Shown: in pieces, positions 18,490 through 22,897 of the stretch | Layout: every line of letters starts with the position of its first letter | Position numbering within the stretch: position 1 is the stretch's first letter | DNA from: Escherichia coli 042 | GTDB lineage: Bacteria; Pseudomonadota; Gammaproteobacteria; Enterobacterales; Enterobacteriaceae | DNA: 64,000 bases | Assembly (NCBI RefSeq): GCF_000027125.1 | Contig: NC_017626.1 | Reading direction: 5' to 3' (one strand) | Position numbers and translations under genes: made by a program | The notes under the pieces: model-generated | Seen by the model: only the letters and a program-made list of their open reading frames with translations | Told to the model about the DNA's origin: nothing | Database searches by the model: none

Positions 18490-19353
18490 ATGAGAATAAC
18501 GATTGCATCAATAATTTTAATAATTAGCGCCACTGCAATAGGCGCCGAAGATACCCCTTCACATTTTGATATTCCCGAGCAAGTATTAAATAATATTACG
18601 AAGGAATCACGAAATAAACTGCAGGATATCATTGCCAAGGCTCAACATGGCGATAAAGCCTCACAAACGGTGATGGGACTCATATACCTGAATGGTCTAT
18701 CTGAAAGTCCTTCAGTGAAGGATATAAACAAAGCATTTTATTGGCTCAACCTTGCAGCAAAGCAAAATTATGATGAAGCTGAATTTTACTTAGGACAGAT
18801 TTATCATTACGGATATGATAATACGGGGCCTAACTATCGTATTGCGATATACTGGTATGAGAAAGCGGCAGAAAAAGGGAATGAACAAGCTCAAATAAAC
18901 TGTGCGAATATTTATCAATTTGGCCCACAGGAATTCCAAAACATTAACAAAGCCAAGTATTGGCTTCAGAAAGCAGTACAGAAGGACAATCCTATTGCAC
19001 ATGCAAACTTAGGGATTATCGGAATTCAAGAGAATAAGTATGCTGAAGCTATCCCTCACTTAAAAATAGCGGCAGAAAAGGGTCAGCGACTCGGCCAATA
19101 TAATTACGGGACACTTTTTTTTAATGGTCAGGGCGTTCCCAAAGATATACGACAGGCTAAATACTGGTTTGAGAAAGCTGCTACTCAAAACTTACCTATT
19201 GCACAAATTACTTTAGGACAAATTTATGCCTGGGGGCTTGATGGAAATGGCATAAATAAAGAAGAAGCGTTGCTCTGGTTAAATAAAGCCAAAGCCCAAG
19301 GTCAATTTACTGATAAACAGATCAACGCCATTATTTCAAAAAAAATAGACTAA
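18490..19353 (+). CDS. secreted Sel1-repeat (TPR-like) protein
   Basis: 287 aa; N-terminal signal peptide; about 7 Sel1-like repeats (recurring xAxxWxxKAAxQG); AT-rich coding sequence. Confidence 0.75.
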   Translation: MRITIASIILIISATAIGAEDTPSHFDIPEQVLNNITKESRNKLQDIIAKAQHGDKASQTVMGLIYLNGLSESPSVKDINKAFYWLNLAAKQNYDEAEFYLGQIYHYGYDNTGPNYRIAIYWYEKAAEKGNEQAQINCANIYQFGPQEFQNINKAKYWLQKAVQKDNPIAHANLGIIGIQENKYAEAIPHLKIAAEKGQRLGQYNYGTLFFNGQGVPKDIRQAKYWFEKAATQNLPIAQITLGQIYAWGLDGNGINKEEALLWLNKAKAQGQFTDKQINAIISKKID

Positions 19354-19377
19354 CTCCAAACCAAAATGCTCAAATCA

Positions 19378-20034
19378 ATGCCATCTATTCGCTATCACAA
19401 AATAGAATCATTTAATTATCGCCATATATGGGCCGTTGGTGATATTCATGGCGATTATCAATTATTACAATCCCGCTTACACCAACTCTCTTTTTGCCCC
19501 GAAACTGACTTACTTATTTCCGTAGGCGATAATATTGATCGTGGGCCGGATAGTCTTAACGTGCTACGCCTGTTAAACCAGCCCTGGTTTACATCGGTTA
19601 AAGGCAACCACGAGGCAATGGCGCTTGATGCCTTCGCGACTGGCGATGGCAATATGTGGCTTGCCAGTGGCGGTGACTGGTTCTTTGAGTTAAATGATTC
19701 AGAACAAAAAGAAGCAATAGACCTGTTGCTTCGCTTTCATCATCTTCCGCATATTATAGAAATCACCAACGATATTATAAAATATGTTATCGTACATGCA
19801 GATTATCCGGGTGATGAATATCAGTTTGGCAAGGAAGTAGCGGAAAGAGAGGTACTCTGGCCTGTTGATCGCGTGCAGAAATCACTCAAAGGCGAGTTAA
19901 AAGAAATAAACGGTGCCGACTGTTTTATCTTCGGGCATATGATGTTTACAAATATCCAGACATTTGCCAATCAGGTTTATATTGATACCGGCTCGCCGGA
20001 AAGCGGGCGGTTATCGTTTTATAAAATAAAATGA
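19378..20034 (+). CDS. pphB: serine/threonine protein phosphatase 2 (PPP family)
   Basis: GDIHG, GDNIDRG and GNHE metallophosphatase motifs; about 218 aa from MPSIRY. Confidence 0.88.
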   Translation: MPSIRYHKIESFNYRHIWAVGDIHGDYQLLQSRLHQLSFCPETDLLISVGDNIDRGPDSLNVLRLLNQPWFTSVKGNHEAMALDAFATGDGNMWLASGGDWFFELNDSEQKEAIDLLLRFHHLPHIIEITNDIIKYVIVHADYPGDEYQFGKEVAEREVLWPVDRVQKSLKGELKEINGADCFIFGHMMFTNIQTFANQVYIDTGSPESGRLSFYKIK

Positions 20035-20075: not shown

Positions 20076-20312
20076 TTAACGCTTATCTGCCACCAGCAGT
20101 GGCGGAATGCTCGGCACCATTGGCGCGTCATCAATATCTTTCTGCGTCATGCGGAACGCTTCGGGATAATGTTCGCGGCTGGTGCGGCGCAGCGGTTCGG
20201 TATCGCGCCAGGTATAGAGGCAATGCTGGCACTGGTAGACCGTCCAGACATCTTTTACCGGCGATTTCGCCATCACTTCAATCTGTTCATCAGCACAACG
20301 TGGACAAATCAT
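20076..20312 (-). CDS. ecdD: phenolic acid decarboxylase small subunit (BsdD/VdcD-like)
   Basis: 78 aa Cys-containing ORF immediately downstream of the UbiD-like gene. Confidence 0.75.
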   Translation of the reverse strand: MICPRCADEQIEVMAKSPVKDVWTVYQCQHCLYTWRDTEPLRRTSREHYPEAFRMTQKDIDDAPMVPSIPPLLVADKR

Positions 20313-20322
20313 CTTGTTCTCC

Positions 20323-21750
20323 TTATTGACGTGCGGCCAGCATAGCGGTCAGTTTTTCAGCCCAGGCTTTGGTTTCCGGTAAATCCACCACCGGCTGGCT
20401 GTAGTGACCACGGTTGTCCGGGGCGACAGGCGTGGTAGCGTCGATAATCAGCTTGTCGGTGATACCTGCCGGGCTTGAGCCGGGGTCGAGTTCCAGCACG
20501 GACATATTCGGCAACTGCACCAAATCCCCTGCAGGGTTCACTTTCGAAGAGAGCGCCCACATCACCTGCGGCAGGTTGAACGGATCAACGTCTTCATCGA
20601 CCATAATCACCATCTTCACGTAGCCCAGACCGTGTGGCGTGGTCATCGCACGCAGGCCCACCGCGCGGGCAAAGCCACCGTAGCGTTTTTTGGTGGAGAT
20701 AATCGCCAGCAGGCCGTGGGTGTACATAGCGTTCACCGCCTGCACTTCCGGGAACTCGGCTTTCAGTTGCTGATACAGCGGCACGCAGGTGGCAGGCCCC
20801 ATCAGGTAGTCGATTTCGGTCCACGGCATACCAAGATAGAGCGATTCGAAAATCGGTTTGGTACGGTAAGAGACTTTATCGATACGCACCACGGTCATGT
20901 TACGCCCGCCGGAGTAGTGGCCGGTAAACTCACCGAACGGCCCTTCGATTTCGCGTTTACGGCTTTCGATGACCCCTTCGAGGATCACTTCTGAACCCCA
21001 CGGCACATCAAAACCGGTCAATGGCGCGGTGGCGATCGGGTACGGGCTTTCACGCAGCGCGCCCGCCATTTCATACTCAGACTGATCGTATTTCAGCGGC
21101 GTGGCCCCCATCAGGGTGATGATCGGATCGTTACCGAGCGTGATGGCAATCGGCAGATCTTCACCGCGTTCTTCCGCTTTATGCAGATGCAGAGCGATAT
21201 CGTGCATCGGCACCGGTTGCAGGCCGAGCTTACGTTTGCCCTTCACTTCCATGCGGTAGATGCCGACGTTCTGCTTGCCGAAGTTATCCGGGTCGAGCGG
21301 ATCGCGGGAAACCACGCACGCTTTATCGAGATAGAAACCGCCATCACCGTCGTTTAAACGAAACAGCGGCAGAATATCGAACAGGTTGATCTCGTCGCCA
21401 TCGACGGTGTTCTGCGCCCAGGCTGGATTGGCGCGGCGCTCCGGGGCAATGGGGAAGTTATCCCAGCGGCGGATAAACTCATCAATCTGTTTTTTAACCG
21501 GGGTGTTTGGCGGCAGGCCGAGGGAAATCGCGTGGTTCTGCCAGGAACCGATGGTATTCATCGCCACGCGGGCATCGATAAAGCCGCGAATATTGTCAAA
21601 CCACAGCGCCGGTGCACCATCGCCGATACGTCCGGTGGCGTTGGCAGCGGCTGCCAGATCCGGTTCCGCGTTCACCTCTTCACTGATTTTCAGTAACTGG
21701 CCGTGGTCATCAAGCGCCTGTAAAAAGCTGCGTAAATCATCAAATGCCAT
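20323..21750 (-). CDS. ecdC: UbiD-family (prFMN-dependent) aromatic acid decarboxylase
   Basis: 475 aa with UbiD-family similarity. Confidence 0.85.
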   Translation of the reverse strand: MAFDDLRSFLQALDDHGQLLKISEEVNAEPDLAAAANATGRIGDGAPALWFDNIRGFIDARVAMNTIGSWQNHAISLGLPPNTPVKKQIDEFIRRWDNFPIAPERRANPAWAQNTVDGDEINLFDILPLFRLNDGDGGFYLDKACVVSRDPLDPDNFGKQNVGIYRMEVKGKRKLGLQPVPMHDIALHLHKAEERGEDLPIAITLGNDPIITLMGATPLKYDQSEYEMAGALRESPYPIATAPLTGFDVPWGSEVILEGVIESRKREIEGPFGEFTGHYSGGRNMTVVRIDKVSYRTKPIFESLYLGMPWTEIDYLMGPATCVPLYQQLKAEFPEVQAVNAMYTHGLLAIISTKKRYGGFARAVGLRAMTTPHGLGYVKMVIMVDEDVDPFNLPQVMWALSSKVNPAGDLVQLPNMSVLELDPGSSPAGITDKLIIDATTPVAPDNRGHYSQPVVDLPETKAWAEKLTAMLAARQ

Positions 21751-22343
21751 TATTCATTCTCCTGAGAAAAATTCCGGGCCTGCGGCAATCCTTGCCAGCG
21801 CCTGGCGTGAGGATGTTCGAGGCCAAATTGATCCAGCACGCGGGCTACCACATGGTGGACAATGTCATCTACCGTTTCGGGATGGTTATAAAAGGCAGGC
21901 ATCGGCGGCACCATCGCCACACCCATGCGCGAAAGTGCGAGCATATTTTCGAGATGGATTGTGCTAAGCGGCATTTCACGCGGCACCAGCACCAGTTTGC
22001 GGCCTTCTTTGAGCACGACGTCCGCCGCGCGCCCTACGAGACCATCGGCGTAACCAGCGCGGATACCGGCGAGCGTTTTCATACTGCATGGAATAACGAT
22101 CATGCCGTCGGTACGAAAGGAGCCGGAAGAGATAGTCGCAGCCTGATCCGCCGGGTTATGGCTGAAGTCTGCGAGGGCGGCAACATCGCGAGCGCTGTAA
22201 GGCGTTTCCAGTTCAATGGTGGTTTTCGCCCACTTCGACATCACCAGATGAGTCTCGACATTCGGCATCTCCCGCAGCGCTTGCAGTAATGCCACCCCAA
22301 GAGGCGCACCGGTAGCCCCTGTCATCCCGACGATCAGTCTCAT
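21750..22343 (-). CDS. ecdB: UbiX/Pad1-family flavin prenyltransferase
   Basis: 197 aa; N-terminal MRLIVGMTGATGAPLGV flavoprotein motif. Confidence 0.88.
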   Translation of the reverse strand: MRLIVGMTGATGAPLGVALLQALREMPNVETHLVMSKWAKTTIELETPYSARDVAALADFSHNPADQAATISSGSFRTDGMIVIPCSMKTLAGIRAGYADGLVGRAADVVLKEGRKLVLVPREMPLSTIHLENMLALSRMGVAMVPPMPAFYNHPETVDDIVHHVVARVLDQFGLEHPHARRWQGLPQARNFSQENE

Positions 22344-22360
22344 TGTTTATTCTCTTAATT

Positions 22361-22374
22361 GTTCGTATACGAAC
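22361..22374. promoter_or_regulatory. perfect palindrome in the divergent ecdB/hosA promoter region (candidate MarR-type operator)
   Basis: GTTCGTATACGAAC, 14 bp, self-complementary, about 18 bp upstream of ecdB start. Confidence 0.45.
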
Positions 22375-22489
22375 GTTATTATTAAAATACGCCTCTGTTT
22401 TCATCGCGGCAAGCACTGAAAAGTAACAACATCTTCTTCGTCACTGAAAAACCGCTATGATAGCGGCAGATAGTTTGCCCGGAGTTTAC

Positions 22490-22897
22490 ATGGCGTTACG
22501 AAATAAAGCGTTCCATCAGTTACGACAGCTTTTTCAGCAGCACACGGCTCGCTGGCAGCACGAGTTACCTGACCTCACCAAACCACAGTACGCGGTGATG
22601 CGCGCCATTGCTGATAAGCCTGGTATCGAACAGGTGGCACTGATAGAAGCAGCAGTCAGCACCAAAGCAACGCTGGCAGAAATGTTGACAAGAATGGAAA
22701 ATCGTGGCTTAGTCAGACGTGAACATGACGCCGCTGACAAGCGGCGACGCTTTGTCTGGCTGACTGCCGAAGGAGAAAAGGTACTTGCTGCGGCGATACC
22801 GATTGGTGACAGTGTGGATGCGGAATTTTTGGGGCGTTTGAGTGGAGAAGAGCAGGAGCTGTTTATGCAGCTGGTGCGCAAGATGATGAGCAAATAG
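22490..22897 (+). CDS. hosA: MarR/SlyA-family transcriptional regulator
   Basis: 135 aa from MALRNK; winged-HTH MarR pattern; divergent from ecdB. Confidence 0.85.
   Translation: MALRNKAFHQLRQLFQQHTARWQHELPDLTKPQYAVMRAIADKPGIEQVALIEAAVSTKATLAEMLTRMENRGLVRREHDAADKRRRFVWLTAEGEKVLAAAIPIGDSVDAEFLGRLSGEEQELFMQLVRKMMSK

Follow-up and report, generated by a model that had tools for sequence, protein, structure and literature searches.

The palindrome between ecdB and hosA in an Escherichia coli strain is the published HosA binding site and lies in the predicted start region of the decarboxylase operon

The published HosA site and its match in the window

The DNA site of the Escherichia coli repressor HosA has been described and reused before. 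According to a preprint summary of Roy & Ranjan 2016 (Biochemistry 55:1120), a palindromic site is located downstream of the operon transcription start, and in the account given by the preprint HosA represses the operon and itself, with derepression by 4-hydroxybenzoic acid. Autorepression of hosA is credited to that study by two preprints, and is therefore treated below as a second-hand report. Cao et al. 2018 (PMC6261655) refer to a "14-bp TFBS of HosA", for which binding was established by EMSA and biolayer interferometry, and found that 4-hydroxybenzoic acid dissociates HosA from probe DNA. Liang et al. 2019 (PMC6694116) placed CGTTCGTATACGAACA in unrelated flanks, where it is bound by HosA and released by p-hydroxybenzoic acid (4-hydroxybenzoic acid), and a 16-bp core is therefore sufficient for both binding and release. 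A third group also reused the HosA motif, and all three cite Roy & Ranjan 2016. Binding of HosA to the fliC promoter is reported as well.

After HosA itself, the closest solved relative of this protein is PcaV (E = 1.7e-15). In Streptomyces coelicolor, PcaV has an operator OI that is a perfect inverted repeat with a 4-bp spacer, located 10 bp downstream of the operon start, and a second, imperfect operator OV, which is located 20 bp from the regulator's own start codon and accounts for autorepression (Davis et al. 2013, PMC3616709).

In the window, by which we mean the whole 64-kb stretch of DNA that was analysed, the sequence GTTCGTATACGAAC at 22361..22374 is its own reverse complement and thus a perfect 14-bp palindrome. 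The symmetry ends there, with the flanking T (22360) and G (22375) unpaired. The palindrome lies inside a 146-bp gap (22344..22489) between ecdB/vdcB on the minus strand and hosA on the plus strand, and RefSeq carries no annotation over it. A preliminary description of this DNA had noted both the exact self-complementarity and the location in the short divergent ecdB-hosA region; the sequence bears out the two statements, and the gap had been correctly delimited. The features concerned are as follows.

20076..20312, minus strand: ecdD/vdcD, small subunit D (VdcD model NF041205, 121 bits against a cut-off of 30)
20323..21750, minus strand: ecdC/vdcC, UbiD-type hydroxyarylic acid decarboxylase (VdcC model NF041204, 789 bits against a cut-off of 650)
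21750..22343, minus strand: ecdB/vdcB, UbiX-type flavin prenyltransferase and first gene of the operon (VdcB model NF041206, 312.8 bits against a cut-off of 290; also RefSeq)
22361..22374, no strand: HosA operator, box 1, GTTCG-TATA-CGAAC, identical to the published HosA oligonucleotides and present in 80 of 80 species loci
22360..22375, no strand: 16-bp version of the site, T-GTTCGTATACGAAC-G, the segment put in heterologous DNA by Liang et al. 2019
22490..22897, plus strand: hosA, 135-aa MarR-family winged-helix repressor that senses 4-hydroxybenzoic acid

The operon encodes subunits B, C and D of a non-oxidative hydroxyarylic acid decarboxylase (EcdB, EcdC and EcdD in E. coli), with the ecdB/vdcB start codon appearing as CAT at 22341..22343 on the plus strand. 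Beyond hosA are rpoS, nlpD, pcm and surE. The hosA ATG at 22490 is the RefSeq start in an identical locus (408-nt coding sequence); a longer reading frame from 22457 represents only the first in-frame ATG and is not the annotated start of hosA. The best PDB match of the protein is entry 8aga, "Transcriptional regulator HosA" (E = 5e-82, residues 1-134), with six more entries so named, and its matches to MarR-family NCBIfam models all fall below the cut-offs. The segments that putatively form its recognition helix and wing, placed according to the customary MarR-family arrangement and not by structural alignment, hardly vary among 81 orthologues.

Several observations concern the wider locus. 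A single chromosomal copy of the segment carrying the hosA region is present in 2389 of 5426 complete E. coli genomes, and the region matches that of strain 50579417 at 100% over 451 bp. To the left of the decarboxylase operon, at 18490..20034, the window encodes a Sel1/TPR-repeat protein and a PrpB-like serine/threonine phosphatase; in the strain with the 100% match (locus L083, 1..3838), ygbL, ygbM and ygbN occupy this side instead, a difference in keeping with the polymorphism already known for the mutS-rpoS region. Among NCBIfam models, HosA scores best against BagL/FevM and EcdB against BagM/FevK, both from Streptomyces bagremycin/ferroverdin clusters. These matches are below cut-off, and for EcdB the BagM/FevK match still outscores that to VdcB; a MarR regulator beside a UbiX/UbiD pair therefore recurs in distant bacteria.

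The palindrome is the already published 14-bp HosA binding site, and hence is not new. If the box is taken as 14 bp, oligonucleotide DNA_HosA-R0 of Cao et al. 2018 is identical over 59 bp to window positions 22339..22397, the layout in the PMC6261655 supplement being CTCATTGTTTATTCTCTTAATT-[box]-GTTATTATTAAAATACGCCTCTG. Oligonucleotide T_H from the same study (PMC6261655) carries GTTCGTATACGAAC. In addition, CGTTCGTATACGAACA, which is given in capitals in dsDNA(HosA)-F of Liang et al. 2019, is the reverse complement of window positions 22360..22375. The earlier proposal that the palindrome serves as the HosA operator thus agrees with published HosA binding on identical sequence. A search of full-text literature for the 14-mer gave no matches; the sequence was found in supplementary tables only.

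One of these tables requires a caution. Supplementary table S1 of PMC6261655 prints the box as 15 bases, GTTTCGTATACGAAC (beginning GTTTCG), on both complementary strands. No duplex could carry this sequence on each strand, and both the genome and the "14-bp" given by the paper itself disagree with it. We take the additional T to be a typographical slip or an artefact of text extraction. Oligonucleotides ordered according to the table would yield an asymmetric site.

Conservation of the box and the predicted promoters

Perfect 14-bp palindromes are not rare in the window, where five were seen against 4.1 +/- 2.1 expected from composition-matched shuffles, although shuffling the 146-bp gap produces one in only 1.2% of cases (p about 0.012). 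No further copy of the 14-mer was found in the 64-kb window with up to two mismatches allowed. Other candidate HosA boxes in the window amount to one-mismatch matches at 2277 and 26938, which is chance frequency (three found against 2.5 expected). The significance of the palindrome rests on its position and its conservation rather than on statistics alone, and conservation is decisive.

The comparative set included one genome per species, giving 80 loci whose HosA relatives share 60-99% identity and which cover about 20 enterobacterial genera (Escherichia, Citrobacter, Salmonella, Klebsiella, Enterobacter, Kluyvera, Kosakonia, Leclercia, Lelliottia, Rahnella and others). In every one of the 80 loci hosA is divergent from the decarboxylase genes and the pattern GTTCG-N4-CGAA(C/T) is present; where gaps were measured (74), the box lies 15-36 bp upstream of the first operon gene. 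The architecture is that of two conserved half-sites, the outer pentamers, separated by a variable YRYR spacer of four bases. When the window is added to the 80 species, all 81 sequences agree at positions 1-5 and 10-13, and position 14 is C in 76 and T in the remaining five, all of which are from Rahnella. The outer ten positions have a majority-base fraction of 0.996, and the remaining 136 columns of the gap one of 0.64. In the middle, the four bases follow the Y-R-Y-R pattern yet vary (TATA, TGTA, CATA, TACA, TATG, CACA), and the palindrome is perfect in just 27 of the 81 sites. In most species the box is flanked by Y on its left side and R on its right. Within E. coli, a 34-bp segment is unchanged in 1696 of 2380 genomes; among the variants sampled, one differs just outside the box and another, GTTCGCATACGAAC, has a change confined to the core.

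These data bear on the simplest alternative, namely that the palindrome is a chance occurrence or a weak intrinsic terminator with no regulatory role. The unremarkable number of palindromes in the window is compatible with such a reading, and a consensus scan called 22360..22375 followed by TTATTATT terminator-like. Against this, the 80 species share invariant half-sites in a gap whose remaining positions are conserved at 64%, and the sequence is identical to DNA that has been bound experimentally. Moreover, the palindrome does not follow the end of any plus-strand gene, its stem is limited to 5-6 pairs, and the tail TTATTATT is not a run of T. The palindrome, which is one of two hairpins called terminator-like in 22250..22600, was therefore rejected as a terminator on anatomy, and we give this alternative next to no credence.

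The box follows the 5′ end of the operon and not hosA. In Enterobacteriaceae bacterium LSJC7 (locus L069, 2403..3000), where the hosA-ecdB gap is 598 bp compared with the usual length of about 170 bp, the box is 16 bp from ecdB and 568 bp from hosA; no convincing open reading frame was found in the extra gap DNA of this locus. Likewise, six loci without ecdB/vdcB beside hosA, in which ecdC is the first gene, keep the box upstream of ecdC. These are L050, L065, L066, L072, L076 and L080 (Pluralibacter, Superficieibacter, Cedecea, two Rahnella), and in these six species the prenyltransferase must come from a gene at another place or from UbiX.

Conserved hexamers within the gap suggest where transcription begins in each direction. 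The predicted elements are as follows.

22407..22412, minus strand: predicted operon -35, TTGCCG, based on conservation
22384..22389, minus strand: predicted operon -10, TATTTT, at a 17-nt spacing from the -35, likewise based on conservation
22456..22461, plus strand: predicted hosA -10, TATGAT, conserved and 82 bp from the box, with a poor matching -35 in the window

On the operon strand a TTGnnn hexamer block occurs in 60 of 74 gaps, mostly 35-36 bp from the box edge, and is evident in the alignments as a conserved GGCAAG block in the operon -35 region. Of the 60 gaps with this block, 58 also carry TAnnnT at 17-nt spacing, mostly 9-10 bp from the box edge. In the window the two hexamers match eight of 12 consensus positions, and a generic promoter scan of 22250..22600 found no promoter in the gap because its threshold was nine. 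From this pattern we infer the hexamers, the start site and the exact position of the box relative to polymerase. The operon would start near 22377, approximately 7 nt past the -10, which would place the operator at about +4 to +17 of the transcript with its center near +10.5. Such a position agrees with "downstream of transcription start" as given in the second-hand summary of Roy & Ranjan 2016.

On the hosA side, TAT[GC]AT is found in 58 of 60 gaps, and in 50 of these 58 it is 34-35 bp upstream of the hosA ATG. A promoter of the form TTAAAA-17-TATSAT is predicted at the column of the hosA -10 in 60 of 73 species. It is not predicted in the window, where the hosA -35 is poor because Escherichia lacks about 25 bp at this place. 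The operator would therefore be about 100 bp upstream of the predicted hosA start. At this distance, simple overlap leaves the reported autorepression unexplained, and repression of hosA from a single distant site is something that we infer rather than observe.

The same -10 column carries a second symmetric element, the palindrome CCGCTAT-G-ATAGCGG (7+1+7) at window positions 22452..22466, which overlaps the predicted hosA -10. Its core, CTAT(G/C)ATAG, is conserved across genera and its outer arms are specific to Escherichia; TTTTT comes next on the minus strand, and the consensus scan called the element terminator-like. It could simply be the -10 region, the site of another regulator, or an insulator against antisense read-through.

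The preliminary description had proposed that the palindrome overlaps divergent promoters, and here it needs correction: the conserved hexamers and the published summary put the site just past the operon start. The inverted repeat does adjoin a marR-family gene, as is typical for this family, but with the promoters as predicted it would lack the overlap with the regulator's own -35/-10 that is also typical of MarR autoregulation.

A version of the earlier proposal can nevertheless be formulated in which one operator is shared by both promoters, such that HosA would repress in both directions by direct occlusion. We consider this unlikely. The hosA promoter that it calls for, and to which we attach an equally low probability, would be on the plus strand with a -35 of TTGTTC at 22359..22364, an 18-nt spacer, and a -10 of TAAAAT at 22383..22388. 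The operator would then cover this -35 and the spacer. This candidate scores 7.5/12 in the window, which is close to the 8/12 of the operon promoter; the second base ahead of the box is T in 79 of 81 sequences, a TAAA(A/C)T block is conserved, and the autorepression reported second-hand would be accounted for. However, such a promoter is predicted in just eight of 73 species, versus 60 of 73 for the TAT[GC]AT promoter, and the hosA leader would then be about 95 nt long. On the opposite strand, the TAAA(A/C)T block makes an equally good operon -10, at the correct 17 nt from the conserved -35. As to the related claim that HosA controls both the operon and itself, the first half agrees with published experiments, while the second is known from second-hand accounts only.

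If the predicted operon start is right, the palindrome falls within the first 20 nt of the 5′ untranslated region, and a role as RNA must also be weighed. In this alternative, a 5′ hairpin in the ecdB mRNA would stabilize the message or tune its translation, with protein binding being secondary. A stem of 5 bp with a 4-nt loop can indeed be drawn 4 nt from a Shine-Dalgarno-like AAGAG. However, at -4.9 kcal/mol the hairpin is weak, folding of the leader is no stronger than that of shuffled sequences (z = -0.07), the ribosome-binding site is unpaired in the fold, and a search of 22250..22600 against Rfam gave nothing at E <= 1. No compensatory changes occur in the stem, whose bases are invariant over 80 species as is the pattern for sequence-specific recognition by a protein, and the sole outer change, to CGAAT in Rahnella, would disrupt a pair in RNA from the ecd strand. 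Direct binding of HosA to this DNA has also been published (PMC6261655, PMC6694116). A primarily RNA-based function is thus very improbable.

We conclude with high confidence that the palindrome is the operator through which HosA represses ecdBCD (vdcBCD). In the mechanism that we propose, a HosA dimer would read the invariant GTTCG and CGAAC pentamers, presumably via its winged-helix domains, and the central YRYR would serve as a spacer without base-specific readout. Bound HosA would cover DNA that polymerase needs at initiation and so keep the decarboxylase operon off, until 4-hydroxybenzoic acid, a substrate of the decarboxylase, binds HosA, causes it to leave the DNA and allows the operon to be transcribed. 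For a site at the predicted position, "occlusion of initiation" would be at least as apt a term as "roadblock".

A second box in other genera

Almost half of the comparative set contains an additional element. In 36 of the 80 species loci a second, imperfect box is found 56-57 bp from box 1 in the direction of hosA. It mostly takes the form GTTCG-YRYR-CGATC, which matches nine of the ten outer positions, with eight of ten in most Klebsiella. A representative is given here.

L040 2901..2914, Enterobacter hormaechei: second box, GTTCGCATACGATC, equivalent to window positions of about 22418..22431

In this locus the second box is 3-4 bp upstream of the predicted operon -35 and overlaps neither predicted core promoter. 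Among the 80 loci, no second box was found in any from Escherichia, Salmonella, Citrobacter or Rahnella, and none is present in the window. A weak candidate in the window, CTTCGTCACTGAAA at 22436..22449, matches seven of ten outer positions and was not counted, given that approximately 0.5 such matches are expected per gap by our estimate.

The gap in the window also contains a direct repeat. The sequence CACTGAAAA occurs twice, 28 bp apart, at 22414..22422 and 22442..22450, in the part of the gap that in Escherichia falls short of other genera by about 25 bp. The repeats may reflect a rearrangement that removed the second box together with the usual hosA -35. More broadly, the ancestral enterobacterial hosA-ecd region could have had two boxes 56-57 bp apart, a perfect one at the operon start and an imperfect GTTCG-YRYR-CGATC one a little upstream of the operon -35, with the Escherichia lineage of the window having lost the second along with about 25 bp that included the usual hosA -35, a scenario that we put forward tentatively and regard as less probable than its opposite. 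If it is true, E. coli strains with this locus would have a one-operator circuit, and hosA autoregulation and induction kinetics would differ from those of Enterobacter and Klebsiella. The second box and its absence from Escherichia are the sole point of this analysis that might be new.

Comparison with known repressor systems

The original observation is real and was correctly interpreted, and it was already known; the one correction is that the site is in the predicted operon start region and does not appear to lie across both promoters. The operator is a characterised one that has already been used in 4-hydroxybenzoic acid biosensors. What the comparative data add is a sharper definition of the site, consisting of two invariant pentamers and a free YRYR core at a fixed distance of approximately 10 bp from the operon -10. 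Such data could aid sensor design or help to explain hosA autoregulation, and constitute refinements to a known circuit.

The nearest system is the HosA operator of E. coli UMN026 (Roy & Ranjan 2016), which Cao et al. 2018 and Liang et al. 2019 took up for sensing 4-hydroxybenzoic acid. It shares 59 identical bp with the window, comprising the 14-bp box with the sequence on either side; the flanking genes are the same, and the neighbourhood is again that of mutS-rpoS. There is no detectable difference between the two; the window simply represents another strain.

PcaV, the next nearest system, resembles HosA in being a MarR repressor of a divergent aromatic-acid pathway that is released by a substrate of that pathway. 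The half-sites differ, with TCAG....CTGA for PcaV and GTTCG....CGAAC for HosA, and the PcaV system has a second operator, whereas the window is without one even though 36 of the 80 other species have an imperfect second box.

More distant parallels can be drawn with two classical E. coli systems. The lac operator O1 is a palindrome centered at about +11 that hinders polymerase at the promoter until a ligand releases the repressor. As predicted for the HosA site, it is positioned just downstream of the start, and like that site it responds to a small molecule, but LacI does not belong to the MarR family, its operator is longer, and it makes use of auxiliary looping sites. Sites I and II of marO, which are bound by E. 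coli MarR, are pseudo-palindromes by the regulator's own gene, and phenolic ligands relieve repression there. MarR and HosA thus share the use of a MarR-family dimer on a palindrome or pseudo-palindrome beside the gene for the regulator itself. Nevertheless, MarR regulates its own operon from sites over the -35/-10 elements and the ribosome-binding site, whereas the HosA site is in the predicted start region of the divergent operon.
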